This document shows, in pieces, positions 29,455 to 52,884 of a stretch of 64,000 nt of DNA. The stretch spans positions 193,084 through 257,083 of the forward strand of contig JBAZSE010000001.1 in NCBI GenBank assembly GCA_041662565.1. Reading direction: 5' to 3'. The notes below the pieces were generated by a model. It had not been told where the DNA came from. It did no database searches and saw only the letters and a list, made by a program, of their open reading frames with translations. Source of the DNA: Patescibacteria group bacterium. GTDB taxonomy: Bacteria; Patescibacteriota; Patescibacteriia; UBA1558; UBA10009. How positions within the stretch are numbered: the first letter of the stretch is position 1; the number at the start of each line of letters is the position of its first letter. A program made the translations under genes and the position numbers.

Positions 29455-29483
29455 TAGATAAAGATAACAAATTGAATTTTAGC

Positions 29484-29520
29484 AGGCCGATGCCTTAAGG
29501 CATCGGCCTGTTTGTTTTTT
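29484..29520 (+). terminator. Strong rho-independent terminator after fusA
   Basis: AGGCCGATGCC-TTAA-GGCATCGGCCT plus a T-rich tail. Confidence 0.8.
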
Positions 29521-29547
29521 ATAATGTTTGTGTTATAATATCATTCT

Positions 29548-29940
29548 ATGATAATCCAAAAACATCTGTACTTGATCTCTTTGTTGTTTTTGTTTTCGGT
29601 TATTTTAATGCCTTTGTCATTATCCAACTGTGGCCTTCAGGGTTTTTATATTGCTTTGGGTTGCCCCACACTGCACGCCAATTCGTGCGGAGGTATGAAT
29701 TTGGATCATTTCGGTTTTATGCTGGGCATGCTGACTTTTGGGCTGGCGGCCATTTTTTACTTTTTTTGCCCGCAAATTTTAAGGAAAAAACTTTTTTCTT
29801 TAATAGATTTGATTAAAAAACAATTTTTTATTCAAGCTAAATTTTTTGCCAATCAAGGTAATTTAATCGGCAATCTTAAGCCGTTTGATAATTTATTATT
29901 AGCTTATTCAAGCGGCATAATTCAACCAAAAACTTTTTAA
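29548..29940 (+). CDS. Hypothetical small membrane protein
   Basis: Two to three TM helices; Cys pairs. Confidence 0.3.
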   Translation: MIIQKHLYLISLLFLFSVILMPLSLSNCGLQGFYIALGCPTLHANSCGGMNLDHFGFMLGMLTFGLAAIFYFFCPQILRKKLFSLIDLIKKQFFIQAKFFANQGNLIGNLKPFDNLLLAYSSGIIQPKTF

Positions 29941-30017
29941 ATAAAATTTTCAGGTTTCTTTATCCGCCAAAGCCCTAAGCAAAGGCGGAAATCATTAATC
30001 TTTAATTTTGAACCATT

Positions 30018-30773
30018 ATGTTTGATGAAAAAAAAGACGGCATTTTTGCCAATCAGAATCCCAAAACAACCTTTATCTTTGGTTTAATCGGCGGATTGTT
30101 GGTTGTTTGCACCATTGGTTTTTTTATTTTATTGGCTAATGTTTTAGCCAATAATGATGATAGTGAAAAAGCTCCGGTGGCAAAAGGCAATGCGGTAGTT
30201 AACGATCCCTCTAACAACGCGCCGGTGGCTCCAACCGTAGGCGGAAAAGTGGAAATTAAACTTTCGGGCACCGAATATATCAGAGGCAATAAAAATGCCA
30301 AAGTTAAAATCGTAGAATTTTCCGATTATCAATGTCCTTTCTGTTCCAGATTCCATCCTACTATGCAACAGGTTATGGCCGATTACGGCGATAAAGTTGC
30401 TTGGATTTACAAGCATTTTCCTTTGGATTCTCTCCATCCTAATGCCCGTCCGGCTGCCGAAGCCAGTGAATGCGTTGGCGAACAAAAAGGCAATGACGGT
30501 TTTTGGCAGTTTACCGATGGCCTTTACGGCGAACAAGATAAAATAGGGCCCGATTTTTTTAAAGAATTGGCTCAAAAGATCGGGGTTAATATGTCTGAAT
30601 TCAACAATTGCGTTTCTTCCCGTAAATATCAGCAAAAGGTAGAAGCCGATTATCAAGAGGGCTTATCTTACGGTGTAGATGGTACTCCCGGAAGTTTTGT
30701 TAACGGCGTGCCGGTTAAAGGCGCTTTGCCTTACGCTTCCGTTAAACAGATTATCGATTCTGAACTTAATTAA
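30018..30773 (+). CDS. DsbA-like thioredoxin-fold thiol:disulfide oxidoreductase
   Basis: Signal anchor; CPFC active site in DYQCPFCSRFHP. Confidence 0.7.
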   Translation: MFDEKKDGIFANQNPKTTFIFGLIGGLLVVCTIGFFILLANVLANNDDSEKAPVAKGNAVVNDPSNNAPVAPTVGGKVEIKLSGTEYIRGNKNAKVKIVEFSDYQCPFCSRFHPTMQQVMADYGDKVAWIYKHFPLDSLHPNARPAAEASECVGEQKGNDGFWQFTDGLYGEQDKIGPDFFKELAQKIGVNMSEFNNCVSSRKYQQKVEADYQEGLSYGVDGTPGSFVNGVPVKGALPYASVKQIIDSELN

Positions 30774-30805
30774 ACAACCAAACAAATATAAATTGGATTA
30801 ATTTT

Positions 30806-30890
30806 CGAGCTATGTCGAGCTATTTTGAGCTAAGTCGAGCTAAGCTCGATAAGCTCGATAAGCTCGATAAGCTCGATAAACTCGATTTGG
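30806..30890 (+). repeat. Tandem decamer/nonamer repeats: four copies of TCGAGCTAnn then five copies of CTCGATAAG; the two blocks are mutually reverse-complementary
   Basis: tcgagctatg tcgagctatt ttgagctaag tcgagctaag ctcgataag (x3) ctcgataaa ctcgatttg. Confidence 0.7.
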
Positions 30891-30923
30891 TTCAGTTATT
30901 TTTGTTGTGGTTAAACGATCATT

Positions 30924-32300
30924 ATGCTTAATCAAGAAAATAATCTTTATCAATGTAAAATTTCCGGCATGCACTGCGAGGCCTGTGAAATTTTATTGGA
31001 ACGAAAATTAAAAGAAGCATCGGGCGTTATTTCGGTTAAGGTAAACCATGCCAATGGCAAAGCCAAATTAATTTGCACTTCTGAGCCCGATTGGAAAAAT
31101 CTACAAGCCATTGTGAAGCATGAGGGCTACGATTTAACTTATTCGACTGATGGTCAGGCAAAGCAGGCAAATAATCTTGAAAAAGTTAATCATTGGCAGA
31201 TTGCCGGATTTTTTCTGGTGGTAATTGTTGGGCTTTGGCTGTTAAATAAACTGCAATTATTGCCGGAAGGTTTTGGGGTAAGTAATAACATGAGTTACGG
31301 GTTAATTTTTGGCATTGGTTTGGTAGCGGCCGTTTCCAGTTGTTTGGCAGTCACCGGCGGTTTACTATTGGCATTAGCTGCCAAAGAACAAACGCTTAGG
31401 CCAAACTTAACCGGCTGGCGCAAATTTAGGCCCTATTGGCATTTTAATTTAGGTCGGCTGGTTGGCTATACTGTTTTTGGTGGTTTAATTGGCGCGTTAG
31501 GTTCGGGCTTAAGTTTATCGGTCAGTGTTAGCAATTTAGTTACAATTATCGCCAGCATAGTGATGATTTTATTGGGCTTTAATTTGCTACAGCTTTTTCC
31601 ACAATTAAGGGTTTTGCATCCCAGGATGCCAAAATTTTTAGGCCATAAAATCCATGACTTGGTTCAGCAAGAAAATTCGGTTGGACCGTTTATTTTAGGC
31701 GGTTTGACTTTTTTCCTGCCCTGCGGTTTTACCGTTGCTTTGCAGTTGTATGTTTTATCCCAAGGCGGAATTTTAACCGGTGCCTTAACCATGCTGGTTT
31801 TTGCGCTTGGAACTTTGCCGGCTTTGCTTTTTATCAGCATTTTATCCAGTTTTATCAAAACTTCTTGGCGAAATTATTTTATAAAGTTTGCAGGAGTTTT
31901 GGTGGTGGTTATCGGTTTGCTGGGTTTAAAAAGCGGTTTGGCTTTTTTAAGGGGCACTCAAACGGGATCTGTTAAACAAGGGGTTTCAAGCCAAAATTCC
32001 AGTAGTGTTTATTTGCCTTTGGTTGATGGTAAGCAAATTGCTCAAATGGAAATTAACGGTTTGGGTTATTATCCTTCAATCTTTAAAGTTAAAGCGGGTA
32101 TTCCGGTGGAATGGCAGATTGATGGCACCAAGGCCTCGGGTTGCGCCCAAGTAGTTGTTTCGCGCGGGCTTGGTATTCAGGAAATCATTCCACGAACAGG
32201 TATTAAAACCATTACTTTTACCCCAACTCAAACAGGCAAGATAGCTTTTAGTTGCCCCATGGGTATGACAACTCCGGGCTCGGCTTTTATTGTTGAATAA
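30924..32300 (+). CDS. Heavy-metal-associated (HMA) domain fused to a polytopic permease (TauE/SafE- or CcdA-like) and a C-terminal beta-rich domain
   Basis: GMHCEACE HMA motif; about eight TM helices with Gly-rich helices; C-terminal FSCPMGM. Confidence 0.5.
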   Translation: MLNQENNLYQCKISGMHCEACEILLERKLKEASGVISVKVNHANGKAKLICTSEPDWKNLQAIVKHEGYDLTYSTDGQAKQANNLEKVNHWQIAGFFLVVIVGLWLLNKLQLLPEGFGVSNNMSYGLIFGIGLVAAVSSCLAVTGGLLLALAAKEQTLRPNLTGWRKFRPYWHFNLGRLVGYTVFGGLIGALGSGLSLSVSVSNLVTIIASIVMILLGFNLLQLFPQLRVLHPRMPKFLGHKIHDLVQQENSVGPFILGGLTFFLPCGFTVALQLYVLSQGGILTGALTMLVFALGTLPALLFISILSSFIKTSWRNYFIKFAGVLVVVIGLLGLKSGLAFLRGTQTGSVKQGVSSQNSSSVYLPLVDGKQIAQMEINGLGYYPSIFKVKAGIPVEWQIDGTKASGCAQVVVSRGLGIQEIIPRTGIKTITFTPTQTGKIAFSCPMGMTTPGSAFIVE

Positions 32301-32312
32301 TATTGAACATTA

Positions 32313-32435
32313 GGGGCAGGCAGAATTAAATTATTTTTTCGCTCGCATAACTCGCTTGCCCGACTACGCCTTCGGCTTGTCGGTCTTAGCTCAAACAGAT
32401 CCTCGCTTCAAAAATAATTTAATTCTGCCTGCCCC
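32313..32435 (+). repeat. 26-bp perfect inverted repeat flanking a 70-nt spacer, immediately upstream of copA
   Basis: ggggcaggcagaattaaattatttttt ... aaaaataatttaattctgcctgcccc; spacer contains CCGAC..GTCGG. Confidence 0.7.
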
Positions 32436-32460
32436 CACACTGATATTAATAATTTATTAT

Positions 32461-34635
32461 ATGAAAGAAATAAATTTTAACATAGCCGGCATGCATTGTG
32501 CTTCGTGTTCTACTCGCAATGAAACCAGCTTAAAAAAATTGAGGGGCGTTAAAGAGGCCGTTGTTAATTATGCTTTGGGTACGGCTAGGGTAAACTACGA
32601 TGAACAGTCGGTTTCGGTTAAGGCCATGCATCAGGCAGTAGAAGCCAACGGTTACAAAGTGGTTGATCAAACAGGCGAGGGCCATATGCATCATGATAAT
32701 TCCGTTCAAGAATTACAGCAGGCAAAAAATAAAGCCCTACTTGCTTTAGGCTTGGCTTTACCGGCTTTAATTATGGCCATGTTTAAAATTAATTTTCCTC
32801 TGGAATTTTGGGGATTTAATTTAAGCGTTTGGCTGCAAGCCGGCTTAAGTTTAGCGATTATTTTGGGCTTGGGTTTTGAATTTCATGTTGGCATGCTTAA
32901 GCAACTTAGGCATTTTACCGCTAACATGGATAGTTTGATTTCTATTGGCACGCTTGCTGCCTTGGTTTACAGTTTTTGGGCTATGACAAACGGTTTAGAG
33001 GATTTTTACTTTGAAACCGGCGCGGTGATTACGGCTTTAATTTTGCTAGGTAAATATTTTGAAGCCCGCAGTCGTGGCCAAGCCAGCCAAGCCATTAGTA
33101 AATTAATGCAATTGGGCGCCAAAGAAGCCACAATTTTAATCAACAATCAGCAAAAGCTTGTGCCTATTGATCAGGTTAAAACAGGGGATCGTTTACTGGT
33201 TAAACCGGGTGAAAAAATTCCGGTTGACGGCAGGGTGGTTAAAGGCAAAAGTAATGTTGATGAAGCCATGTTAACCGGAGAAAGTTTGCCGGTTGGTAAA
33301 AAAATCGATGATGAAGTTTTTGGCGCGACCGTAAATATTGACGGTTCATTAGAAATTATCGCCACTAAAGTTGGGGCCGAAACCGTTTTGGCACAAATTG
33401 TTAAATTAGTGGCCGACGCGCAAAATACCAAAGCCCCAATTCAAAAATTAGCCGATAAAATTTCGGGAATTTTTGTGCCGATTGTTATGTTGCTGGCCAC
33501 TATTACGGCGCTGGCTTGGTATTTTTTTACCGGCGATTTAACCAGTGGGTTGATTTCGGCTGTGGCGGTTTTAGTTATTGCTTGCCCTTGCGCGCTGGGC
33601 TTGGCCACGCCAACAGCCATTATGGTGGGTACTGGTTTAGGCGCCAAAAGGGGAATACTTATTAAAAACGGCCAATCATTGGAAAGGGCGGAAAAAATAG
33701 ATGTGATGATCTTTGATAAAACCGGCACGTTAACCCAAGGCAAGCCAAAAGTTACTGATATTATTAATTTGTCCGAAAAATTATCTTTGGATGAAGTGTT
33801 GGCTTTAGCTGCCGGAGCAGAAATTTTATCCGAACATCCTTTGGCCAGGGCCGTGGTTCAAGCGGCTTTGGATAAAAAATTGGTTTTGCCGGAAGTTGAT
33901 GATTTTGAAAATTTAGCCGGCCAAGGAGTTAAGGCCAAAATTAAAAACAGTTTGTTGCTGGTGGGCAGTTTGCGCTTGCTGGAGCAGTTAAATATTCCCA
34001 CTAAGCAATTAGAACAAAAATTAAATCAATTAGCCAATGAAGCCAAAACGGTAATTGTTGTAGCTTACGAAAATCAAGCTGTTGGCTTATTGGCAATTGC
34101 CGATACAATTAAAGCGGAAGCCGTTCAAGCCATTATTCAATTAAAACAATTGGGCGTTAAAACCATCATGATTACCGGTGATAATAGGCAAACCGCCCAA
34201 GCTATTGCCAGCCAATTAAATATAACCGAGGTGTTGGCGGAAATTTTGCCTCAAGGCAAAGCCAGCGAGGTTAAAAAATTACAAAGCCAGGGTTTTAAAG
34301 TGGCTTTTGTAGGCGATGGCATTAATGACGCGCCTGCCTTGGCCCAAGCGGATTTGGGTTTGGCTATGGGAACGGGAACAGATATTGCTATGGAAGCCGG
34401 CAACATTGTTTTGGTTAAAGGCAATCCGGTTAAAGCAGTGGAGTCGCTTAAACTGGCTCAAGCCACTTTGCGGGCGATTAAGCAAAATTTATTTTGGGCT
34501 TTCTTTTATAATGTTGTGGCTTTGCCTTTAGCGGCTTTTGGCTTACTTAATCCTATGATAGCCGCCGCAGCCATGTCATTCAGTTCCGTTTCGGTAGTTC
34601 TTAATTCTTTACGTCTCAAAAAGATTAAATTATAA
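32461..34635 (+). CDS. copA: Copper-translocating P1B-type ATPase
   Basis: N-terminal [11 protein letters not shown]; CPC ([11 protein letters not shown]); DKTGTLT; GDGINDAP; start taken at 32461 because the upstream extension overlaps the IR. Confidence 0.9.
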
Positions 34636-34639
34636 ACAT

Positions 34640-35206
34640 ATGGATATATTTATCTATTACTTTAAGGAATTTCTTAATTATTTAACGTTAATTGGAACGG
34701 GGATTGCGGTGATATTATTACTGAATATAATTTATCTAAAAGCGACATCCAAAAGTTCTAATTGGCTGGCTCAATTGATTCAAAATAAGGCGCTGTTATG
34801 GGTATTTATTGTTTCTTTAATTGCCACTTTGGGTAGTTTGTTTTATTCCGAAATTGCCGGTTATCAGCCCTGCAAATTATGCTGGTTTCAGCGGATCTTT
34901 ATGTATCCCTTGCCTTTATTAATCTTAATGGCTCTGATTAGAAAAGAAATTTGGATTAAGCCCTATGCTTTAGCAATGTCGGTAATTGGGCAGGTAATCT
35001 CTTTGTACCATTATTTTTTGCAAGTTGGAACATTATACAATATTCCGGTTAATAGTTTGGCTCCTTGTTCGGATGTTGGTGTTAGTATTTCCTGCACTTC
35101 TTTTTCTTTTATCCGCTTTGGCTATATTACGATTCCCATGATGTCGTTTATCGCGTTTTCTTTAATAACCATTATTTTGCTGACAAAAACAGATAAGAGA
35201 AATTAA
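34640..35206 (+). CDS. DsbB/BdbC-family disulfide bond formation protein
   Basis: CKLCWFQRIFMYPL resembles BdbC CxxCWYQRI; four TM helices; second Cys pair near the C-terminus. Confidence 0.7.
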   Translation: MDIFIYYFKEFLNYLTLIGTGIAVILLLNIIYLKATSKSSNWLAQLIQNKALLWVFIVSLIATLGSLFYSEIAGYQPCKLCWFQRIFMYPLPLLILMALIRKEIWIKPYALAMSVIGQVISLYHYFLQVGTLYNIPVNSLAPCSDVGVSISCTSFSFIRFGYITIPMMSFIAFSLITIILLTKTDKRN

Positions 35207-35289
35207 CAAAAGTTTGTACTTGAGTAATTGCGGATTCCGCGGATTTAAGGTCTGTGGAATCCGTTTTGAATTCGTGATATCATAAATAC

Positions 35290-36102
35290 ATGCTTATCAC
35301 CAAGGCCTCGGGCGAGCAGGTTCAATTCAGCCGCCCAAAATACGAAGAATCTTTGCGTAAGGTTGGCTTAACCGTGGCCGAAGCCAAAGAAATTTCCGCC
35401 CAAATTTATCAGGATTTGTATCCTTCTATTAATTCAGCAGAAATTTATTCTAAAACCCAAATTGTTTTAAAGCAAAAAAACCGTATGTTTGCCGCCAAGT
35501 ATTCTCTTAAAAGAGCTATTATGAGCTTGGGGCCAACAGGTTTCTTTTTTGAACGCTATATGGCGGCGGTGTTAAGCGCTTACGGTTATCAAACCAAGTA
35601 CAATCAATTTTTGCGAGGCAAATGCGTGGAGCACGAAGTTGATATTGTGGCCGAACGATCAGGCAAAAAATACATGATTGAATGCAAGTATCATAACCAG
35701 CCCGGCGTTAAATCGGATGTTAAAGTGGCTTTATATATTTACGCGCGTTTTTTGGATTTGCGTGAGGCGCAAAAATTTGATGAGCCGGTGTTGATTACCA
35801 ATACATTATGCACTACCGAGGCCATTAAGTACGCCCGTTGTTCGGGCTTAAAAATTATTGGTTGGCATTATCCTTTGGGCAACCAAAGTTTGGAGCATTA
35901 TATTGAAGCCAAAAAACTTTATCCCGTTACCGTTTTAACTTCTTTAACCGCTTATTTAAACGCCGCTTTTAGAGAAGCCAACATAGTTTTAGCGAGCGAC
36001 TTGTTAAAATTTAGCGTTACGGCTTTAGCCAAGAGGTTTAAAATCAAAGAAACCTTGGCGCAAAAATTAATTTCTGAAGCAAAAGAACTAACGGAAGTTT
36101 AA
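35290..36102 (+). CDS. ATP-cone domain fused to an Mrr-like PD-(D/E)xK restriction-endonuclease-fold domain
   Basis: ATP-cone N-terminus (ITKASGEQVQFSRPKYEESL); HEVDIVAE..MIECKYH PD-ExK motif. Confidence 0.55.
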   Translation: MLITKASGEQVQFSRPKYEESLRKVGLTVAEAKEISAQIYQDLYPSINSAEIYSKTQIVLKQKNRMFAAKYSLKRAIMSLGPTGFFFERYMAAVLSAYGYQTKYNQFLRGKCVEHEVDIVAERSGKKYMIECKYHNQPGVKSDVKVALYIYARFLDLREAQKFDEPVLITNTLCTTEAIKYARCSGLKIIGWHYPLGNQSLEHYIEAKKLYPVTVLTSLTAYLNAAFREANIVLASDLLKFSVTALAKRFKIKETLAQKLISEAKELTEV

Positions 36103-36282: not shown

Positions 36283-36774
36283 ATGGAAAATTTAAAGAAT
36301 AATTATGCCTTTATTGACAGTCAGAATTTAAATTTGGGCATAAGAAGCCAGGGATGGCTTTTGGATTTTAGTCGCTTTAGAGTTTATTTAAAAGATAAAT
36401 ATCATATTAGTAAGGCGTTTTTATTTATCGGCTATGTTGCCGGTAATGAAGTCAGATATGCTGATTTACAACAAGCCGGATATATTATTATTTTTAAACC
36501 CACCTTGGAACAAAAAATTGGTAACAAGGTGGTGGTTAAGGGTAATGTTGACGCTGATTTGGTTTTACATACCATGATTCAATATGGTAATTACAGCCAA
36601 GCCGTTATTGTTTCTGGCGATGGGGACTTTTATTGTTTAGTTGAATATTTAACAGAAAAAGAAAAATTATTGAAAATTATTGTACCTAATAAAAAATACT
36701 CCTCTTTATTAAGAAGATTTAGTTATTTTATTGTTAATATTAGTTTATTCCGGAGTAAACTTGAGAGAAAATAA
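36283..36774 (+). CDS. NYN/LabA-like (PIN-fold) domain protein
   Basis: YAFIDSQNL..NVDADLV..VIVSGDGDF conserved acidic residues. Confidence 0.65.
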   Translation: MENLKNNYAFIDSQNLNLGIRSQGWLLDFSRFRVYLKDKYHISKAFLFIGYVAGNEVRYADLQQAGYIIIFKPTLEQKIGNKVVVKGNVDADLVLHTMIQYGNYSQAVIVSGDGDFYCLVEYLTEKEKLLKIIVPNKKYSSLLRRFSYFIVNISLFRSKLERK

Positions 36775-36930
36775 AAGAGAGGCATTCCCTCGGGACAAAA
36801 CCCTTTGGTAGTCCTCTCATCGTGATAAAGTTATTTTACCAAATTGGTTTTATTTGTAAATATTGACATAATTCATAAAAGATGGTATCTTAATATATTA
36901 AGCTATTGTTCATTAAATTTTACCTAATAT

Positions 36931-36979
36931 TAGCCACGGTTTTTAGCTTGTTTAAAAAATAGGTTGAAAACCGCGGCTA
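36931..36979 (+). promoter_or_regulatory. 13-bp near-perfect inverted repeat TAGCCACGGTTTT/AAAACCGCGGCTA upstream of ORF 37046
   Basis: Read directly; one mismatch. Confidence 0.4.
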
Positions 36980-37045
36980 ATGGCAGCTAGCGGCATAAAC
37001 CAGGCATATCCTATAGAGGGTGCGCCACAAATTTAGGAGTACACC

Positions 37046-37627
37046 ATGCAGGTGAATTCTAAAACGTCCGAATTAGATGAAGTATTCGGAAAAGAACTCG
37101 GATTGGTCCACAAGGCCATTGTTAGAGGCCGCAATTTAGGCGCTAACAAGGCATTTTGGACAGCACTCGCCGATGACTCAATTTTTTTCGGCGAAGTTAT
37201 GGATCTTTATAAGAACAGGTCATATTTTGATAACGACCAAAGGAAGTTTGGTTGGAAGCTATTGAAAGACAATAGCGATCTTGCTGAATTTTCGATTGAT
37301 CTTTTTAAGGAGGTTGTACTTCTCCAACAGGGGGAAAGTTCAATCAATGGCCTCGAGATGATTCAGCGAGCTGTAAAACTTAAGGCCAATCTTGGCCAGC
37401 GGCAGGCTGAATGGTTGTTGAAAAACGGAGACAAGATCCCGATCGGGTTGCGCAACAAAATTTTGGTTTTTCCCGAAACCATTTGGCAGGACATCGATGG
37501 TTTCTTCTGGGTAAGTATCATCTACCATAACGGGATGATCTGGAAAATGAATGGTAGATGTCTAAATCAAAATTTCGATGACATCTTTTATCTGGTTCGT
37601 TTGCGCGATCTACCCTTGGCCGCCTAG
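37046..37627 (+). CDS. Hypothetical protein (GC-richer than surroundings)
   Basis: 193 aa; aggag SD. Confidence 0.3.
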   Translation: MQVNSKTSELDEVFGKELGLVHKAIVRGRNLGANKAFWTALADDSIFFGEVMDLYKNRSYFDNDQRKFGWKLLKDNSDLAEFSIDLFKEVVLLQQGESSINGLEMIQRAVKLKANLGQRQAEWLLKNGDKIPIGLRNKILVFPETIWQDIDGFFWVSIIYHNGMIWKMNGRCLNQNFDDIFYLVRLRDLPLAA

Positions 37628-37676
37628 GCACCCTGTCCTTTATCTAGGATATCTGATCCTTGGATTCTTGACACTT

Positions 37677-37738
37677 CGACCGACTGGACTAAATATGTGT
37701 TCAACAACACCTCTATTTAGTCCAGCGGTCGGTTTTTT
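37677..37738 (+). terminator. Long hairpin terminator (about 18-bp stem) plus T6
   Basis: cgaccgactggactaaata ... tatttagtccagcggtcgg tttttt. Confidence 0.75.
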
Positions 37739-44924: not shown

Positions 44925-44926
44925 TC

Positions 44927-45910
44927 ATGACGAATAAATCATCAAATAAAAACTTGCGTAAGGCAAGCCAAGCAAAGAAAGACGAGTTTTATACCCAACT
45001 TTCTGATATTGAAAATGAGCTTAAGCATTATAAAGATCAATTTCGTGGCAAAGTGGTATTTTGTAATTGTGATGACCCCAAAGAAAGCAATTTTGTCAAA
45101 TATTTCAGCATGAATTTTGAGCATTTAGGATTGAAGAAATTAATCGCCACGCACTATAAAGATGCGAATTTGTTTACTAAAGAAGCGCCATATAAATTGG
45201 AATACACCGGCGATAAAAACGGTAATCGCACACCCGATCCGAGTGAATTCATGAAAAAGATGATTGGTACGGGCGACTTCCGTAGCGAAGAATGTATCAA
45301 ACTGCTTAAAGAAGCCGATATAGTGGTGACCAACCCGCCATTTTCTCTATTCCGTGAATACGTTGCGCAGCTTATCGAATACAGGAAGAAATTTTTGATT
45401 ATGGGTAATCAAAATGCGATTACTTATAAAGAAATTTTTAAATTAATTAAAGAGAATAAGATGTGGCTCGGGCAAAGTCTAAATGGTAAAAATATCTTAT
45501 TTGAAATTCCAGATTATTATGAAAGTTACTACAAAATTATAGGCGGTAAAAAATATGCATTTCCAAAAGGTGTAGTATGGTTTACTAACCTTGATGTGCC
45601 AAAACGAAGTGAAGAAATGGTATTGTACAAGAAGTATATTAAAAAAGATTATCCTACATATGATAATTATGATGCGATAAATATCGACAGGACAGAACAG
45701 ATTCCTCTAGATTATGCTGGAGGCATGGGCGTGCCGATTACTTTTTTACATAAATACAATCCTAAGCAATTTGAGATTTTAGATGGGCTTAATCGTTATA
45801 GTATTTTATTTGGACCCACTAAGGAAACTAGAGGTAAATATTTAGCACAAATAAATGGTAAGCCTATTTATGTTCGAATTGTAATTAAAAACAAGAAAGT
45901 AAAAAAATAA
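44927..45910 (+). CDS. N6-adenine DNA methyltransferase-like protein (NPPF motif IV)
   Basis: VVTNPPFSLF catalytic motif; EFYTQ N-terminus; 327 aa; 2 nt after the HEPN gene. Confidence 0.6.
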   Translation: MTNKSSNKNLRKASQAKKDEFYTQLSDIENELKHYKDQFRGKVVFCNCDDPKESNFVKYFSMNFEHLGLKKLIATHYKDANLFTKEAPYKLEYTGDKNGNRTPDPSEFMKKMIGTGDFRSEECIKLLKEADIVVTNPPFSLFREYVAQLIEYRKKFLIMGNQNAITYKEIFKLIKENKMWLGQSLNGKNILFEIPDYYESYYKIIGGKKYAFPKGVVWFTNLDVPKRSEEMVLYKKYIKKDYPTYDNYDAINIDRTEQIPLDYAGGMGVPITFLHKYNPKQFEILDGLNRYSILFGPTKETRGKYLAQINGKPIYVRIVIKNKKVKK

Positions 45911-45911
45911 T

Positions 45912-47003
45912 ATGAAAATTGAATTACATAAAATTCCAGTATATAAGGTGATTGCCGGTTACAGGGATAGCGCCGAGGAGGGCGTGGTGGCTTATAGCGG
46001 TAAACTTGATATTCGTCCGAAGTATCAGCGTGAGTTTGTCTACAAGGGTCACCAGCGTGACGCCGTTATAAAGACAATCAAAAACGGTTTTCCTCTTAAC
46101 GTGATGTATTGGGTTAAAACTGACGAGGGTAACTTTGAGGTTTTAGACGGCCAACAGCGTACTATTAGCGTAGGCCAATATGTAAACGGAGATTTTTCAC
46201 TTAATGATCGTTTTTTTCATAACTTGACTAATGAGGAACAAAGGCAGATTTTGGATTATGAACTCATGATTTATTTTTGCGAGGGCACGGACAAAGAACG
46301 GCTAGACTGGTTCAGGATAATTAATATTGCTGGAGAAAAATTGACTGACCAGGAATTGCGCAATGCAGTGTACACCGGCTCATGGTTGAGTGATGCTAAA
46401 TTGAAATTTAGCAAATCAAACTGTGCGGCATATCATCTAGCAAATGATGGCGGACAATTAGTAAGTGGATCACCAATACGACAAGAGTATTTGGAAACGG
46501 CACTTTCGTGGATTAACGATGGCAAGATAGAGGACTACATGGCTAAGCATCAGCATAATAAGAACGCTGACGAGCTGTGGGAATATTTTCAGAGTGTAAT
46601 TGCATGGGTACGAAAGACTTTTACAAATTATCGTCGAGAAATGAGCGGTGTACAATGGGGCGAACTGCATAACAAATTCAAAGACAAGAAACTGAACGCT
46701 GGCAAATTAGAAGCCGAAATCAAAGATTTAATGCAAGATGAAGATGTAACGAAAAAATCCGGTATTTATCCGTATGTTTTAACTCAAAATGAAAAATTTC
46801 TAAACATCCGTGCTTTTACCGATAAACAAAAGAGAGAGGCCTACGAAAGACGGAAAGGCGTTTGTGCAAAGTGTAAAAAATCTTTTGAAATTGGAGAAAT
46901 GGAAGCTGATCATATAAAACCTTGGCATGAGGGCGGTAAAACTGTTTCAGAAAATTGCCAGATGTTATGTAAGCAAGATAACAGAACTAAGTCTGGAAAA
47001 TAA
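45912..47003 (+). CDS. DUF262 (ParB-like, DGQQR motif) fused to a C-terminal HNH endonuclease
   Basis: IRPKYQREFVY and VLDGQQRTISVG DUF262 signatures; CAKCKK..EADHIKPWHEGGKTVSENCQMLCKQDNRTK HNH motif; start 1 nt after the MTase stop. Confidence 0.7.
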   Translation: MKIELHKIPVYKVIAGYRDSAEEGVVAYSGKLDIRPKYQREFVYKGHQRDAVIKTIKNGFPLNVMYWVKTDEGNFEVLDGQQRTISVGQYVNGDFSLNDRFFHNLTNEEQRQILDYELMIYFCEGTDKERLDWFRIINIAGEKLTDQELRNAVYTGSWLSDAKLKFSKSNCAAYHLANDGGQLVSGSPIRQEYLETALSWINDGKIEDYMAKHQHNKNADELWEYFQSVIAWVRKTFTNYRREMSGVQWGELHNKFKDKKLNAGKLEAEIKDLMQDEDVTKKSGIYPYVLTQNEKFLNIRAFTDKQKREAYERRKGVCAKCKKSFEIGEMEADHIKPWHEGGKTVSENCQMLCKQDNRTKSGK

Positions 47004-47094
47004 AAACGGCAGTATTAAGATTTAATAGATTGTATGTATTTATTGCAAAATTTTAAGAAAAGTGATAAAGTCATGGTGAATTATCTATAAAAAT

Positions 47095-48120
47095 ATGGAC
47101 AAAAAAGCATTTATTCAACAAATTGAAAAATTAAGGAATTCTAAGGTTATTACCTATTTAACTAGTGATAGGCAGGGTCCTGTTAACGCTAGAATTGCCA
47201 TGGATATAGTGCCTATTATAAGCAAGCAGTTAATGGCTATTGGTAAAACTGAAAATATCGATCTATTTTTGTATAGTTCGGGTGGCGACACCATGGTGCC
47301 ATGGAGATTGGTTTCCATGATCCGCGAATACTGCGAAAAATTTTCAGTTATCATTCCATATAAAGCTCATAGTTCCGCAACTATGATTTCTTTAGGCGCT
47401 GATGAAATTGTTATGAGTAATCTTTCAGAGCTTTCGCCAATTGATCCATCAACAGCTAATGTTTTTAATCCTAGTGATCCACAGAATCCTCAAAATAAAA
47501 TTCCTATCTCTGTAGAAGATGTGATGGCTTATTTTGATCTAGCAAAGAATAAGTTTGGCATTAAAAATGACGAAGATCTGGCTAAGATTTTTAATAAATT
47601 TGTGGAAGCCAATCCTCAAATTCATCCTTTGGCCCTAGGTAATATTAATAGGACTCATAATTTAATACGTAACCTCGCTAAGCGTTTACTAAAAAGTCAT
47701 AAAACGCCAATGAGGGAAGAAGAAATTGGTAAAATTGTTGATGATTTTACGGAAAAACTATATTCCCACCAATATTTTATTGGTCGTAAAGAAGCTAAGG
47801 AGGATTTAGGTTTAAAAAATGTTGTTTTTGCTGATGAAAGTTTAGCTAAAGCAATGACCGATTTATACGAAGAATATGCTAGGGAAATGGAATTTGGGAT
47901 TATGTGGAGTCCGGAAAATGAACTTGGTCTTAATGTTATGCAAAACACGAAAGATTATAAGATTGCTTTTATTGAGAGTGATAGTATTATTAATTGTTTT
48001 GAGTTAAAAATTGAATATAGGAAACAACAGATTAATATTATTCAACAAACTCCTCAGGGTCCAATCCAGGTGCCTCAAGAGCAGGTTGGATTTAAGATCG
48101 TTGAGCAGGGTTGGAAATAA
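47095..48120 (+). CDS. SDH-family (S49/ClpP-fold) serine protease
   Basis: LYSSGGDTMVPWRLVSMIRE..AHSSATMISLGADEIVM matches the SDH/ClpP-fold Ser nucleophile region; 341 aa. Confidence 0.55.
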   Translation: MDKKAFIQQIEKLRNSKVITYLTSDRQGPVNARIAMDIVPIISKQLMAIGKTENIDLFLYSSGGDTMVPWRLVSMIREYCEKFSVIIPYKAHSSATMISLGADEIVMSNLSELSPIDPSTANVFNPSDPQNPQNKIPISVEDVMAYFDLAKNKFGIKNDEDLAKIFNKFVEANPQIHPLALGNINRTHNLIRNLAKRLLKSHKTPMREEEIGKIVDDFTEKLYSHQYFIGRKEAKEDLGLKNVVFADESLAKAMTDLYEEYAREMEFGIMWSPENELGLNVMQNTKDYKIAFIESDSIINCFELKIEYRKQQINIIQQTPQGPIQVPQEQVGFKIVEQGWK

Positions 48121-48147
48121 ACTTTAATTAACATAAAAAATTTAACT

Positions 48148-48537
48148 ATGTCAAAACCAGTATTAAATTATATTATAATTTGTGAATCAGTGATAGTATC
48201 AGAGGATGGAAAATTTTCTATATTAAATATTTTTAGTGAAATTAATGCTAAACAATTTCCCGCAGCCCATCCAAAATTTGTTATTGTTAGTAATACCAAG
48301 GGGGAGCCTGGTAATTATAAACAAAAAATAGAAATCGTTAATTTACAAGATAATTCAGTAGCGGCTAAGGTTGAGTCAAGTTTTGGAATTAAAGAGGGCG
48401 GTATTAATGTTTTTTTTGGCAATTTTGTTAACACCATTTTTAATAATTCTGGCAAATATTGGATAAAAGTTACTTATGATGATAAAGATGTGGTCACTAA
48501 TGAAAATGATAACTTTTTCTTTGTTAAGCAGTTATAG
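48148..48537 (+). CDS. Hypothetical beta-rich small protein
   Basis: 129 aa, no motif. Confidence 0.3.
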   Translation: MSKPVLNYIIICESVIVSEDGKFSILNIFSEINAKQFPAAHPKFVIVSNTKGEPGNYKQKIEIVNLQDNSVAAKVESSFGIKEGGINVFFGNFVNTIFNNSGKYWIKVTYDDKDVVTNENDNFFFVKQL

Positions 48538-48539
48538 TT

Positions 48540-49082
48540 GTGTATATGAAAAATTTTGAGTTTAAAACAAATGATGATACTTCTACTACGACCAAGTCTG
48601 ATACATTAATCAGCGAAAGCGAGATAGGGGGAACTTTAAAATTTTTAAATGATCAAATTGTCAAGTTACAAGATAAGGCTAATGAGACAGCTGAAGATTT
48701 TAATCGTTTGGAAGGGCGTACTAACGTATTTAGTAATTTTATAATGGGATTAACATCTTTAGTAGCCGGAGTATTTTTTATTAGTGGAATATTTATTTTT
48801 TTAGATTATTGGAAATATAACCCGGAAAGGTTTGAAAAATTTATGGATAAAACAGAAGAAATTAAAGATAATTTTTATACAAAACAAGAAATGGATAAAA
48901 ATATCAATAATCATTATTTAACTATTAAAGATCAGTTAAATAAGGCTTTTGGCTTTGAAGTGGATTTAGATAATCAAAGTCAAGAGCTTGGGGAATTACG
49001 CAAGAGCAATGAATATTTATTAAAAGTAATTAATTGCCAAAAGGATAAGAGATATTGGCAATTTGAACAATGTTATAAATAA
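48540..49082 (+). CDS. Hypothetical single-TM protein with flanking coiled coils
   Basis: TM LTSLVAGVFFISGIFIFL; 3-nt gap after the previous gene. Confidence 0.3.
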   Translation: MYMKNFEFKTNDDTSTTTKSDTLISESEIGGTLKFLNDQIVKLQDKANETAEDFNRLEGRTNVFSNFIMGLTSLVAGVFFISGIFIFLDYWKYNPERFEKFMDKTEEIKDNFYTKQEMDKNINNHYLTIKDQLNKAFGFEVDLDNQSQELGELRKSNEYLLKVINCQKDKRYWQFEQCYK

Positions 49083-49227
49083 TAAATATTTTTTATTTTA
49101 TAAAATTTTTCCCTTTCTGTGGGATTTTTTATTTTCTTGATCCCCCTCTAAAATCATGCTATAATTCCTAAACAATTTAAATAAATTTGGCCTAAACTCT
49201 AGCTATTGCTGGGGCATGGTATAAAAT

Positions 49228-49325
49228 CGTTGAACACATCCAACCCGTCATTCAGGGCGTGTTCAACGTTGCGTAGGGAAACTTACGTAAGGCCCGCAAG
49301 GGCCTCCTGGTGGCGGGTTTTGTGT
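49228..49325 (+). other. GC-rich structured element (10-bp IR, GNRA hairpin GGCCC-GCAA-GGGCC, terminator-like CCCGC..GCGGGTTTT) in the leader of ORF 49370
   Basis: cgttgaacac..gtgttcaacg; ggcccgcaagggcc; gcgggtttt read directly. Confidence 0.4.
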
Positions 49326-49369
49326 TTCCGACATTTTAAGTCAGTCATTATTAACTAACTTTTTGTTTT

Positions 49370-49831
49370 ATGCAAACAACAAAAAATAAGGAAGAAATAA
49401 TCAACAAAATTTTAAATATTATTGAAACAGCCAAGCGTGAACAAATAGCTTATGATGTGCCAGATTGCGAGGGAGCGTTATGCTTTGATCTGGATTTTAG
49501 TGATATTACCCAGGCGGAAAAGTATAAAATTGGAGGTATTGCCCTGCATGTTTTTGGCGATTACGTAAAAAAGAGGGTCACTAAAGTGGAACAATCAGCT
49601 ATGTTAAAAATCGGCCAAGATGTGATGCTTGGTTCTTTTTTGGCGGCTAGGTTAGGGCATAAGGAGCTCTCGGACGAAATAACCAGGCGTTTGCTGGAAG
49701 CCCGATTGGGTTTACTAAAAGAAAACAAGGAGTTTAATTTTTATGAGCTTTTAGATCAGCAGTTTACGGAATATTTGGAGTTTTGCCAGCAGTATGACAG
49801 TCAAATTGCTTTGGAAAGAGGGGTTGTTTAA
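49370..49831 (+). CDS. Hypothetical protein
   Basis: 153 aa. Confidence 0.3.
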   Translation: MQTTKNKEEIINKILNIIETAKREQIAYDVPDCEGALCFDLDFSDITQAEKYKIGGIALHVFGDYVKKRVTKVEQSAMLKIGQDVMLGSFLAARLGHKELSDEITRRLLEARLGLLKENKEFNFYELLDQQFTEYLEFCQQYDSQIALERGVV

Positions 49832-49874
49832 GATATCTAAGTTGAGCAAAACTTTTTAAAATGGTAGTATTTAT

Positions 49875-50447
49875 ATGATGATAAAAAATCAAATAAAGCT
49901 ACATCAAAAGAATATTAAATATACTCTTCGAGTTAGCGCACGGGCACGGCAAATGAGGTTGGCGATATACTGTGACGGTAATTTTGTAGTTACGGTTCCG
50001 CAAAATGTGAGTGCTAATATTATAGAACAATTTATTATTACCAAGGCGCAGTGGATACTTAATAAATTGGAATATTTTAAAAGTATTGCTGGGCGGGTAT
50101 TTCCGGGCGGAAATAAAAAAGAGTATTTACAATATAAAGATAAGGCGCAGGTGCTGGCGCAAGAAAGGATAGGGTATTTTAATCAAACCTATAATTTTAA
50201 ATTCCATAAAATCAATATTAAAAATCAAAAGTCCCGCTGGGGCAGTTGTTCTAAAAAAGGCAATTTAAATTTTAATTATAAAATAGCTTTGCTTTCAGCG
50301 CGTTTGGCTGATTATATTATTGTCCACGAATTGTGTCATTTAGGGGAATTTAATCATTCCCGCAAGTTTTGGAATTTGGTGGCCTGCGTGATACCTGATT
50401 ATTTGGCCAGAAGAAATGAATTAAAGAAAAATAGAATTAAAAAATAA
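49875..50447 (+). CDS. YgjP-like (DUF45/M48-like, WLM-type) metal-dependent hydrolase
   Basis: C-terminal VHELCHLGEFNHSRKFW HExxH..H motif. Confidence 0.65.
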   Translation: MMIKNQIKLHQKNIKYTLRVSARARQMRLAIYCDGNFVVTVPQNVSANIIEQFIITKAQWILNKLEYFKSIAGRVFPGGNKKEYLQYKDKAQVLAQERIGYFNQTYNFKFHKINIKNQKSRWGSCSKKGNLNFNYKIALLSARLADYIIVHELCHLGEFNHSRKFWNLVACVIPDYLARRNELKKNRIKK

Positions 50448-50450
50448 AAT

Positions 50451-51674
50451 ATGAAAATAAATAATTATCTCAAATTAGTTATCACCGTTTTAGTTTCTTT
50501 ATCAGCCGGTTATCTTGGTTCATTTTTTACTACCCCGGCTATTCCCACTTGGTATGCCAATCTTGTTAAACCGGCTTTAAATCCGCCCTCATGGGTGTTT
50601 GCGCCCGTGTGGACCATTTTGTTTATTTTAATGGGTATTGCCGCGTATTTAGTGTGGCAAAAAGGTTTTAAACGGCAAGAAGTTAAATACGCTTTGGTTA
50701 TTTTTGCGGGCCAACTGATTTTAAATATTGTTTGGTCGGGTATTTTTTTTGGCTGGCAAAACCCGGGTGTTGCCTTTTTGGAATTAATTGTTTTATGGCT
50801 GGCGATTTTATCAACCATCAAGGTTTTTGCCAAAGTTTCTAAAACCGCGGCTTGGCTGTTAGTGCCATATATTTTATGGGTCAGTTTTGCCGGCTATTTA
50901 AATTTTTCCATCTGGCAGCTTAATAATTCGCCTGCGGTGGTAAAAAACAATTCTATTTTTGATCCCCAAAATTGTGCTTATGTTATAGAAGATCAGCCCG
51001 TTGTTTTAACTAATGGCTTAAGCGTGCAGGATGTTGTTGATGCCAACGCCAAAATTACCACCAAATATTTTGGCAATCAAGTTAATGCCGATTTTAATGC
51101 TGATGGTTTGGTTGATGTTGCTTTTTTGGCAACGCAAACTTCGGGCGGAAGTGGAACATTTTATTATACGCTGGTGGCTTTAAATACTTCTACTGGTTGC
51201 CAGGGTTTGGCAGCAGATTTTATCGGGGATAGAATTGCTCCGCAAACTACCGAATTTAAAGATGAGATGATTATCGTAAATTACGCCGATCGTAAAGCTA
51301 CTGAAAGTTTTGATGTGGCGCCATCAATTGGTTTAAGTAAATACTACAAAATTATTGATGGGCAGTTAAGAGCGGTTGTGCCGCCAATGTTGGATTACCG
51401 TAACGATCCAACCGTATTGGCTATTCAAAAAATGCTGATTGCCAAATATCCCAAGTATGCCAAAACCTTAGCCGTTAACCTTAGGCAGCAAACCGATATT
51501 TACGCTGTGGGTGCCATTAGTTTTGAGCCCGGTGAAGCCGGTGGCCAGTATTTAGCCGTAAAAGAAGGGGATAGCTGGCAATTGGTTTACGAAGGCAATG
51601 GCAGTGTTGATTGCGTTGCCATTAAGCAAAATTATCAATTTCCAACCGAAATGCTAGCCGGCTTTTGTGATTAA
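50451..51674 (+). CDS. TspO/MBR (tryptophan-rich sensory protein) domain fused to a roughly 250-aa C-terminal beta-rich domain
   Basis: Five TM helices with Trp-rich loops (PSWVFAPVWTILFILMG); long soluble C-terminus. Confidence 0.6.
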   Translation: MKINNYLKLVITVLVSLSAGYLGSFFTTPAIPTWYANLVKPALNPPSWVFAPVWTILFILMGIAAYLVWQKGFKRQEVKYALVIFAGQLILNIVWSGIFFGWQNPGVAFLELIVLWLAILSTIKVFAKVSKTAAWLLVPYILWVSFAGYLNFSIWQLNNSPAVVKNNSIFDPQNCAYVIEDQPVVLTNGLSVQDVVDANAKITTKYFGNQVNADFNADGLVDVAFLATQTSGGSGTFYYTLVALNTSTGCQGLAADFIGDRIAPQTTEFKDEMIIVNYADRKATESFDVAPSIGLSKYYKIIDGQLRAVVPPMLDYRNDPTVLAIQKMLIAKYPKYAKTLAVNLRQQTDIYAVGAISFEPGEAGGQYLAVKEGDSWQLVYEGNGSVDCVAIKQNYQFPTEMLAGFCD

Positions 51675-51730
51675 AAATAATGTATCAAATTTGACAAAGG
51701 TAGTTATTTTTCTTAAGATATTAATATAAT

Positions 51731-51776
51731 AAACAGGGTCAAGTAGCTATTATTAATGGCTTTGGCCTTTTTTATT
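51731..51776 (+). repeat. AAACAGGGTCAA element copy D (right copy of the 45-bp direct repeat), preceded by TTGACA-N17-TAAGAT
   Basis: aaacagggtcaagtagctattattaatggctttggccttttttattt; about 95% identical to copy C. Confidence 0.7.
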
Positions 51777-51779
51777 TCC

Positions 51780-52172
51780 ATGGATAAAGAATTTCAAAAA
51801 TGGCATTCTAAAAAAGAAAAATTACATAATGAAGCGTTAAGGTTGTTTTTTCATGAAAGAGAAGTTTGGTGGTGTTCTTTGGGGGTGAATATAGGTTTTG
51901 AACAAGATGGTAAGGGGGTTATTTTTTCTAGACCTATCCTGGTCCTAAAAAAATTTAACAACGAGGTATTTTGGGCATTATCCTTAACTACTAAGATAAA
52001 ACAGGGCAAGTTTTATGCCCCAGTTATTCTAAATGATAATGTACCCAGGTGTGTGATTGTTTCTCAGCTTCGTTTGATTGATGCTAAGCGGCTCATTGAT
52101 AAAATCGGCACAATCGGCAAAGAAAATTATAATCAAATTAAAAAAACAACCATAAATCTTTTTGATTCATAG
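51780..52172 (+). CDS. MazF/PemK-like toxin-fold protein
   Basis: G.EQDGKGVIFSRPILVL...ALSLTTK resembles the PemK GxEQxGxRPxLVxS..PxTS pattern; start taken after the repeat. Confidence 0.5.
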   Translation: MDKEFQKWHSKKEKLHNEALRLFFHEREVWWCSLGVNIGFEQDGKGVIFSRPILVLKKFNNEVFWALSLTTKIKQGKFYAPVILNDNVPRCVIVSQLRLIDAKRLIDKIGTIGKENYNQIKKTTINLFDS

Positions 52173-52316
52173 TCGTTCATTTCTGGGTAGCTTTTTTAGA
52201 GCCAACCCGAGGCCGAAGCCATTTATAAATATACTTTAACATATCAATAAAGCTTGTCAAGACGGTTATTTGACAAAACCCTTTATTTTCAATAAGATAA
52301 GCCGACAAAACACTAT

Positions 52317-52574
52317 ATGGAACGTCTTAAAGAAATTATTGAATTAATAGAAATAACCGGCGATAAATGCATTATTTTACAGCCGGATAAAGGGGCTTAT
52401 GTTGTCATGAAAATGTCGGATTATAGAGTTTTGGTGGAAAATGGCTTAAAAATAAGGCCAACTCCACAAATCAGCTCTTTTGCCAGGCCCGAAACAGATA
52501 TAAAACTGTACGAAATTCCCCAAATTGGCCAAAAAAACGCTGAAGCAGATATTTATTATCCCGAACCTGCTTAA
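52317..52574 (+). CDS. Phd/YefM-like antitoxin-fold protein
   Basis: ITGDKCIILQPDKGAYVVMKMSDYRVL pattern; preceded by the TTGTCAA-N10-TTGACAA operator-like IR. Confidence 0.5.
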   Translation: MERLKEIIELIEITGDKCIILQPDKGAYVVMKMSDYRVLVENGLKIRPTPQISSFARPETDIKLYEIPQIGQKNAEADIYYPEPA

Positions 52575-52765
52575 GCACACAAAAGGGCCTGCCCCGACTT
52601 CGCTTTAGCGAACTTCGTGGCTAATGTTAGTAAAGTGGGGATAGAGCAATTTTATTTAAGATATAAAATGGCTTGTCTTAAATCTTACAAAGTTCAATTT
52701 TATGGCTAATATTAGCCATAAATTAGTTTAAAAAGCAAAATTAAATCAATAGTGGTCAGGGGTAC

Positions 52766-52794
52766 TTGCATTTTTTTTTACAACTTGCTATAAT
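52766..52794 (+). promoter_or_regulatory. tuf promoter TTGCAT-N17-TGcTATAAT (extended -10)
   Basis: Read directly; 90-nt leader ending in aaggag SD. Confidence 0.6.
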
Positions 52795-52884
52795 CAACCC
52801 TGACTTTTAAATAATTAATTTAGACGGCTGGGTAAAACTGCTCTACTATCAGGGCAGGCCGTTATCAAAAAAGGAGTATTTCAT

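Follow-up and report, generated by a model that had tools for sequence, protein, structure and literature searches.

How have fusA and tuf come to lie 23.4 kb apart in a groundwater Patescibacteria bacterium? The question is raised by a 64,000-nucleotide stretch of contig JBAZSE010000001.1 (assembly GCA_041662565.1), hereafter the window, in which fusA ends at position 29454, tuf starts at 52885 and 30 co-oriented open reading frames (ORFs) lie in between. The nearest named relatives of the host belong to Candidatus Komeilibacteria, with 80-84% amino acid identity in fusA. A preliminary description of the window had read the intervening DNA as a single accessory insertion of about 23 kb at a recombination hotspot. 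The analysis reported here indicates that the fusA-tuf gap was likely filled in layers, by one insertion after another into a slot that is neutral for transcription, and is not a single island. About 13 of the 23 kb (blocks A and B) are lineage-conserved and native-like, and only about 9.7 kb (block C) resemble a recent accessory or defence acquisition. What holds of the earlier reading is that DNA was inserted at an ancestrally closed junction; what does not hold is its unity, since blocks A and B are shared in place with relatives and native in composition, and block B consists of core metabolic genes.

The fusA-tuf junction and the limits of the insert

A survey was made of fusA loci from 80 species representatives, whose genomes are without exception Patescibacteria-like (fusA 67-80% amino acid identity). 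The order rpsL-rpsG-fusA-(small ORF)-tuf-rpsJ-rplC-rplD is conserved across related representatives, and the fusA-tuf gap in the 61 loci having both genes has a median of about 606 bp (44 loci at 800 bp or less, 12 above 1.5 kb, maximum 6.7 kb). Seven further loci have no tuf within 3-10 kb of fusA. Because the adjacency of fusA and tuf is, by this gene order, ancestral, the DNA between them in the window was inserted.

A junction was scored as expanded or broken when it exceeded 1.5 kb or was disrupted, and the same loci were used for five control junctions. The fusA-tuf junction was expanded or broken in 19 of 68 representatives (about 28%), compared with 0-2 of 53-74 loci for each of rpsL-rpsG, rpsG-fusA, tuf-rpsJ, rpsJ-rplC and rplC-rplD; it is thus expanded some ten times more often than the adjacent junctions. 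The cargo carried there by other lineages is unlike that of the window and includes an APH kinase, PD-(D/E)XK, HTH with Fic/Doc, an HNH homing-type endonuclease, TrmD, HEPN with a nucleotidyltransferase (MNT), Bro-N and adenylate kinase (ADK). The proposal of a hotspot is supported, in the comparative sense, by these counts and by the lineage-specific cargo, and fusA-tuf is the preferred point of insertion or breakage of the cluster in this phylum. Interruption of the junction, which the preliminary description had called unusual, is itself not rare; it is the size of 23.4 kb that is exceptional. Inteins or insertions within the fusA genes of relatives were also considered and were rejected, as the 3-kb matches consist of fusA itself and of neighbouring tuf, whose GTPase domain is homologous.

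Between 26 and 56 kb every gene is on the forward strand. The conserved left flank comprises rpsL (26279-26704), rpsG (26717-27181) and fusA (27373-29454), and on the right tuf (52885-54072) is followed by the S10 operon (rpsJ from 54143, then rplC and rplD), as judged from translations and Pfam. A predicted intrinsic terminator follows fusA at 29481-29522, made up of a 14-bp stem with nine G-C pairs (29481-29512) and a T-run. Upstream of tuf a promoter could be read in the sequence, with a predicted -35 box TTGCAT (52766-52771), a 17-nt spacer, an extended -10 box TGcTATAAT (52786-52794) and a leader of about 90 nt. The strong terminator closing rpsL-rpsG-fusA and the extended -10 promoter of tuf, both noted earlier, were therefore found again. 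The consensus promoter scanner missed the latter, its -35 box matching at three of six positions only and falling under the threshold. Counterparts of the fusA terminator, a hairpin and T-run 3' of the gene, are present in relatives L089, L084 and L002, and a G/C-rich palindrome occupies the same place in L082.

Homology at the DNA level with L082, a relative whose site is empty, ends at 29455 and restarts at 52268, and the restart falls exactly at 52268 for L082, L083 and L091 alike; L091 and L082 align again from about 52762-52789 onward, at the tuf promoter. The true insert can accordingly be placed at 29456-52267 (22.8 kb), with its right boundary at 52267 and not at 52884. By sequence predictions it lies between the fusA terminator and the promoter of a small gene upstream of tuf, and leaves both flanking units intact. 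Since in this clade fusA has a terminator and the small gene and tuf each have a promoter of their own, the slot would be permissive, that is, transcriptionally neutral, with inserts disturbing neither flanking unit. No direct repeats were found bounding the whole 22.8 kb, and there is no tRNA or tmRNA target in or beside it, the only tRNA of the window being tRNA-Pro at 21491-21567.

The small gene (52317-52574, forward strand) encodes 85 amino acids with a Phd/YefM-like N-terminus, matched weakly, and a C-terminal YYPEP motif. Its promoter, TTGACA-17-TAAGAT at 52270-52298, is conserved in relatives, and the -35 box is where homology to them restarts. Homologues stand between fusA and tuf in L082 (6118-6369, 50% identity), L083 (11300-11566, 60%), L087, L089 and L091 (4353-4604, 62%), and also in distant representatives. 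With an iterated profile, 50 of 68 loci proved to have a family member upstream of tuf, at a distance of 70-412 nt, and an exhaustive profile search extended the family to 184 representative clusters. Its members measure 75-323 amino acids (median about 107) and share the Phd/YefM-like N-terminal segment, an acidic linker and a C-terminal aromatic-aromatic-x-E-P motif, the last in 32 of 54; matches to Pfam PhdYeFM were below threshold in eight of ten. A sequence-profile search of the PDB with the small ORF found nothing, and its AlphaFold2 model, with a predicted local distance difference test (pLDDT) score of 61.5, was too low in confidence for a meaningful fold search.

The gene is thus an ancestral locus gene of Patescibacteria, and neither cargo of the island nor a PemK antitoxin. 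Its pairing with the upstream PemK gene as a toxin-antitoxin module (51756-52574) was rejected, as the small ORF is kept beside tuf in those 50 of 68 loci without a PemK homologue; it also lies 145 bp downstream of pemK behind its own conserved promoter. The classical partner of Phd is Doc, which targets elongation factor Tu (EF-Tu), and it was also observed that a Fic/Doc gene occupies the fusA-tuf slot in L046.

Three layers between fusA and tuf

Block A (29548-36102) is a copper/disulfide module. Homologues of its genes, at 38-72% amino acid identity, were found in the same fusA-tuf gap in L083, L084, L086, L087, L089, L002, L098 and L101, with identities to the window of 38-46% for the Cys-rich ORF, 53-63% for DsbA, 44-62% for CopA and 64-72% for the Mrr-like protein. 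Of the close relatives, whose occupied members have fusA identities of 75-83%, nearly all thus carry the block at this site. The gaps of close relatives form a nested series of 0.6, 3.8, 7.2, 8.2, 9.6 and >10 kb, with 23.4 kb in the window. At the lower end stands L082 (fusA 84%), whose 0.6-kb gap holds the small ORF only, followed by L098/L132 (fusA 75%; 3.8 kb) with Mrr-DsbA-HAD and by L083 (fusA 83%; 7.2 kb) with MerR, the Cys-rich ORF, DsbA, DsbB, HMA permease, CopA and ACP. The Cys-rich ORF, DsbA, CopA, Mrr and ProC fill the 8.2 kb of L089 (fusA 78%), the Cys-rich ORF, DsbA, DsbB, Mrr and Band_7 fill the 9.6 kb of L087 (fusA 80%), and the gap of more than 10 kb in L084 (fusA 81%) includes DsbA, CopA and ATP-cone/Mrr. 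In L086 and L002 the gap opens with the same genes as in the window. Assemblies GCA_026396575.1, GCA_040960315.1 and GCA_964588165.1 correspond to L082, L083 and L084, and L089 lies on a 592 kb contig of ERZ27245997.

The composition of block A (GC content 0.398, tetranucleotide z 0.76) is within the null range, the background for this and the other blocks being the 64-kb window only. In a neighbour-joining tree of fusA, the window and its relatives form one eight-taxon clade (200 of 200 bootstraps), and a grouping of the seven occupied taxa to the exclusion of the empty L082 was never recovered (0 of 200). Block A would therefore seem to be old and vertically inherited. Since L082 is nested inside the occupied clade, it has probably lost the block secondarily, and one ancient gain followed by loss would be the simplest history.

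Within block A, a Cys-rich membrane ORF (29548-29940) is followed by genes recognised through Pfam as DsbA/Thioredoxin_4 (30018-30773), an HMA-DsbD_2-cupredoxin permease (30924-32300), the P-type ATPase CopA (a TTG-initiated ORF from 32356, ending at 34635), DsbB (34640-35206) and a protein with Mrr_cat and AF1548-like_C domains (35290-36102), all on the forward strand. A perfect 26-bp inverted repeat (32313-32338 and 32410-32435, arms 71 nt apart) was noted between the permease gene and copA; because the long TTG ORF crosses it, the real start of copA is probably the ATG at 32461. In the spacer between dsbA and the permease gene, at 30841-30885, the 9-mer TAAGCTCGA stands five times in tandem, with TAAACTCGA as its final copy; this could be the operator of a metal-responsive regulator. 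An Mrr_cat/ATP-cone-like gene is linked to CopA, DsbA or the HMA permease in close and in more distant lineages (the distant L105, 10001-15308, and L108, 7602-11465; also L095). Instead of acting as a restriction nuclease, the Mrr-like protein probably belongs to the copper/disulfide module, as one of its components or as its regulator.

Block B (36283-42510) is likewise native-like (GC content 0.396, tetranucleotide z -0.65). Its forward-strand genes, assigned by Pfam except for one hypothetical ORF (37046-37627), encode NYN (36283-36774), RpiB (37817-38266), Rpe (38263-38895), transketolase (Tkt, 38901-40901), a LOG protein of the Lysine_decarbox/SLOG type (40938-41657) and transaldolase (Tal, 41662-42510). 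The order Mrr-NYN-hypothetical-RpiB-Rpe-Tkt recurs as in the window in L092 (Tkt 77% amino acid identity), and L091 (Tkt 74%), whose tuf at 91% amino acid identity is the closest observed, has Rpe-Tkt-LOG-Tal directly ahead of the small ORF, tuf and rpsJ. In the more distant L093 (Tkt 65%), Tkt-hypothetical-LOG-Tal lies at another place, beside GlmS and PGI. Block B thus entered the slot before the split from L091 and L092.

The non-oxidative pentose-phosphate pathway belongs to the core metabolism of genomes of the Candidate Phyla Radiation (CPR), and the arrival of block B was probably an intragenomic relocation of resident core genes. Horizontal transfer of the pentose-phosphate block from another phylum was considered and rejected as unsupported: the best Tkt beyond the three close relatives is about 62% identical (Deltaproteobacteria and others), yet Tkt is uniformly conserved, and L093, taken as a Patescibacteria relative, has tkt-LOG-tal at 65%. 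A LOG gene is kept between tkt and tal in three genomes (40938-41657 in the window, 2510-3268 in L091 and 8134-8856 in L093), which suggests a nucleotide-salvage step releasing ribose-5-phosphate into the non-oxidative pentose-phosphate pathway.

Block C (42.5-52.3 kb) differs from both. In L091 tal is followed by the small ORF within about 90 bp, at a place where the window has 9.75 kb. Block C has a GC content of 0.346 and a tetranucleotide z of 5.3, a value as extreme as which was not seen in any of 200 null segments. The deviation is concentrated in 44151-49100 (z 3.7), the right third (49.1-51.7 kb) being native-like (z 0.45), and per-gene GC content within the block ranges from 0.26 to 0.40. 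Two of the checks suggested in the preliminary description, on synteny and on composition across the insert, hence give divided answers. Conserved content in relatives, which had been named as a sign of an ancestral arrangement, was found for blocks A and B, and block C is absent from L091; the composition is deviant in block C and native in the other two.

Family assignments in block C were made with Pfam, PADLOC, PHROGs and NCBIfam, and those of RNAs with Rfam; features are on the forward strand unless stated. A methyltransferase (MTase, 44927-45910; PADLOC MTase_II 2.4e-122 over the full length, Pfam EcoRI_methylase) is followed by a DUF262-HNH restriction endonuclease (REase, 45912-47003; PADLOC REase_II 1.2e-134 over the full length, Pfam GmrSD_N and HNH), and 44927-47003 is thus a predicted type II restriction-modification (R-M) pair. 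Fourteen IMG/VR contigs (L116-L129) carry the pair without the genes that flank it here, with the REase at up to 83% amino acid identity, as high as the fusA identity of the organism's closest genomes, which indicates a putative mobile two-gene cassette. The genes at 42671-42976 (Gp49/HigB-like, Pfam Gp49 7.9e-20) and 43040-43345 (HTH_3, Pfam 3.2e-16) form a predicted HigB/HigA-like toxin-antitoxin pair, the only canonical one in the insert. The intact PemK/MazF-like gene (51756-52172) is an orphan, no antitoxin being found adjacent to PemK and no PemK homologue in any related locus. While most of the genes listed in the preliminary description were supported by Pfam, PADLOC and NCBIfam, the MTase and DUF262-HNH genes have thus to be read as a type II R-M pair, and the three toxin-antitoxin modules reduce to one pair and an orphan PemK.

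The remaining members of block C, from left to right, are a 65-amino-acid ORF (43376-43573), a DUF3800-IX RNA on the reverse strand (43581-43649; 54 bits, above the Rfam gathering threshold), a MazG-like protein (43798-44154), TIGR02391/Ymh (44160-44924), an SDH Clp-like protease (47095-48120), DUF6941 (48148-48537), a hypothetical protein (48540-49082), a LOOT RNA (49189-49305; 79 bits, also above the gathering threshold), a second hypothetical protein (49370-49831), YgjP (49875-50447) and a TspO fusion (50451-51674). No DUF3800 gene was detected near the DUF3800-IX RNA, and both RNA motifs of the block are orphans. A prophage origin of block C was rejected, as the SDH protease has no IMG/VR relative, the PHROG matches point to function-unknown families or to MazG/MazF in general, and nothing but the R-M pair is met again in "viral" contigs.

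The 5' end of pemK is present twice. The left copy (42514-42595, forward strand) consists of a pemK-type promoter TTGACA-16-TAAAAT, the leader and the first six codons, and ends in the stub MALAFFY and a stop; the right copy (51691-51773, forward strand), with promoter TTGACA-17-TAAGAT, leader and 5' codons, runs into the intact pemK. The repeat has a 43-nt core (42553-42595 and 51731-51773, 95% identical), extends over 82 nt and brackets about 9.1 kb (42596-51690). This arrangement suggests either an insertion into pemK with the 5' end restored or a duplication-mediated insertion, two mechanisms that cannot be told apart because no recombinase is present.

Two hairpin elements of about 65-70 nt were also observed at the left of block C, T1 (42594-42662) and T2 (42991-43054), with conserved GA-rich flanks and a central stem that is fully variable yet always complementary. 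Further copies occur in L091 (6141-6210 and 4744-4815) and L048 (14462-14534), which brings the total to three of T1 and two of T2, and neither T1 nor T2 has an Rfam match even at E<=1. T2 has 9-bp terminal inverted repeats TATAATTGG and in L091 is found within the tuf promoter, flanked by duplicated TATAAT; it looks like a miniature inverted-repeat transposable element (MITE) supplying a -10 box. Outside the fusA-tuf gap, a second insertion of about 1.8 kb (24278-26073, GC content about 0.31) with hypothetical ORFs at 24328-25548 and 25576-26025 was noted between an M50 peptidase gene and rpsL. L082 lacks it and has a spacer of only about 200 bp, and other relatives have different genes there.

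Alternative histories of the gap

The layered history would comprise three steps. The copper/disulfide module (Cys-rich protein, DsbA, DsbB, HMA permease, CopA and Mrr-like protein) entered the slot in the ancestor of the Komeilibacteria-like clade and has been inherited vertically since, with a secondary loss in L082, as synteny and phylogeny show. NYN and rpiB-rpe-tkt-LOG-tal then joined it on the downstream side of the Mrr-like gene, in the direct ancestry of this genome, as is shown by synteny with L091 and L092. In the last step, tal and the small ORF were parted by accessory DNA that accreted to about 9.7 kb, as its absence from L091, its composition and the mobile R-M cassette show.

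Recent acquisition of the whole 23 kb or so as one genomic island would account for the co-orientation of the 30 ORFs between a terminator and a promoter, for the empty site of so close a relative as L082 and for the presence of defence and toxin-antitoxin genes. It is nevertheless very improbable, given that blocks A and B (13 kb) occupy the same site in at least eight relatives as nested subsets with amino acid identities typical of vertical descent and are indistinguishable from the flanks in composition, that tal stands directly before the small ORF and tuf in L091, which makes block C separate and later, and that there is no integrase and no repeat around the whole segment. No more credible is the opposite idea, that the whole arrangement is the ancestral gene order of the lineage and that fusA and tuf were never adjacent. 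Block A at the site throughout the clade, block B in the nearest relatives and the native composition agree with it, but fusA, the small ORF and tuf lie within about 0.6 kb in the sister lineages beyond the clade and in most of the 61 representatives, block C is missing from L091, and L082 is compact although it lies inside the clade. Misassembly is also unlikely. The source is a metagenome assembly (MEGAHIT-style contig k141_1565377 of ENA ERZ27249449, 809,043 bp), yet next to no weight attaches to the idea that an artefact joined unrelated contigs at 29.5 and/or 52.5 kb: the region is embedded in an 809-kb contig, the junction of fusA, Cys-rich ORF and DsbA recurs in seven independent assemblies of relatives, Mrr-NYN with the pentose-phosphate genes recurs in L092 and Tal-small ORF-tuf in L091, and the assembly k-mer is longer than the one repeat inside the region (43-82 nt). 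Logan assemblies from two other runs (SRR6484324, L134, and SRR18595301, L135) are 100% identical to 50255-52959, which spans TspO, PemK, the small ORF and tuf. Both begin exactly at 50255, inside ygjP, and this shared start hints at a strain-variable breakpoint or a repeat.

For block C taken separately, a more specific possibility, though a rather doubtful one, is that 42.5-51.8 kb represents one site-specific integrative element inserted at the 5' end of pemK. The 43-82 nt repeat would then be attL/attR, the element would have brought a replacement promoter and 5' end for pemK, and its integrase would have been lost or the element mobilised in trans. The direct repeat brackets the 9.1 kb exactly and leaves a truncated pemK stub at the left, the composition is deviant, the block is absent from L091, and R-M and toxin-antitoxin genes are selfish modules such as an element might carry. 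Against these points, block C contains no recombinase gene, its GC content is heterogeneous with a native-like right third, the R-M pair moves independently in other contigs, and pemK is absent from L091, with no empty attB observed.

The layered history with stepwise accretion of block C is accordingly preferred, and several observations weigh against it. The phylogeny is a neighbour-joining tree of a single gene, fusA, so that independent gains of block A are conceivable. L091 and L092 are known from contigs of 8-10 kb that lack fusA, and their placement rests on tuf and Tkt identity. The comparison covers the 64-kb window and the loci of relatives, within which relocation of the pentose-phosphate genes and their gain are not distinguishable. 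Independent assembly support is lacking for one junction only, that at the left of block C (about 42.5 kb), and Pfam detected no recombinase or transposase domain in the 30 ORFs, so that no mechanism of insertion is demonstrated for any step. When simple criteria were applied, 25 of 83 loci from relatives showed a terminator 3' of fusA, and 23 of 64 an extended -10 box before tuf. Because this conservation is partial, the argument for a neutral slot is firm for this clade only, and no claim is made for the whole phylum.

Related events and implications

In Gammaproteobacteria and Bacilli, small non-mobile gene sets have been found inserted between translation and transcription operons, a process termed "invasion-separation" in which the distance may grow later (PMC6735719, PMC8046335). 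The inserts are often ordinary metabolic genes without mobility functions, such as bfd-bfr, tusDCB, nrdHEF and ilv/leu, and are tolerated only where one transcription unit has ended and the promoter of the next has not yet begun (PMC6735719, PMC8046335). The present locus resembles the cases of Brandis (2019/2021) in its ancestrally colinear flanks, in that both units are left intact, in its stepwise growth, and in that blocks A and B consist of ordinary copper/disulfide and pentose-phosphate genes without mobility genes. It differs in that the published cases fall between operons as defined in E. coli, whereas the break here is inside the E. coli str operon (fusA|tufA), and it does so in Patescibacteria, in which tuf is served by a promoter of its own and an extra small gene lies in between. 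The slot also gathers defence and toxin-antitoxin cargo, the selfish modules of block C, and is filled in about 28% of related species representatives.

Block C is like genomic and defence islands at chromosomal integration hotspots in being present in one genome and absent from another, in its deviant composition, in the direct repeats at its flanks and in grouping R-M, toxin-antitoxin and candidate defence genes. Such islands are unlike this locus in that it lacks an integrase, a tRNA or tmRNA target and mobility genes, in that only 9-10 of the 23 kb fits, and in that its content is mosaic and not one element. A further parallel is Rickettsia, in which, as Syvanen and co-workers are said to have reported in 1996, fusA and tuf are unlinked and tuf heads the S10 cluster, reportedly through recombination between tuf copies and genome rearrangement. 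There, as here, rpsL-rpsG-fusA and tuf-rpsJ behave as separate units, but in the window both halves are co-oriented and local and are separated by inserted genes. A survey of aquifer Patescibacteria described abundant genomic islands, including R-M islands, and no mention of the fusA-tuf site was found there (PMC12455944). The case is therefore a known kind of event in a different phylum, at the fusA|tuf boundary, with an unusually clear stepwise record and a layer of defence and toxin-antitoxin genes.

A bolder idea, to which little probability is given, is that the fusA-tuf slot may be a phylum-wide preferred site of gene capture, defined by the small gene that always keeps beside tuf. The small protein could in that case serve EF-Tu, in its expression or its function, as a dedicated regulator or as a partner, and the T1/T2 hairpins, which carry a -10 box, might help to supply promoters to captured genes.

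For annotation, the consequence is that a stretch with the look of an island, inside a conserved ribosomal gene cluster of a streamlined CPR genome, can be made up of several layers. To call the whole gap accessory or horizontally transferred would mislabel core pentose-phosphate and copper/disulfide genes, and would turn an ancestral small gene into an antitoxin. The small protein upstream of tuf offers a testable candidate for a lineage-specific translation-associated factor. Within the rpsL-to-rplD cluster of Patescibacteria the weak point is the fusA|tuf junction itself, which provides a convenient, anchored locus at which to survey strain-level gene flux and the turnover of defence genes in uncultivated CPR bacteria.

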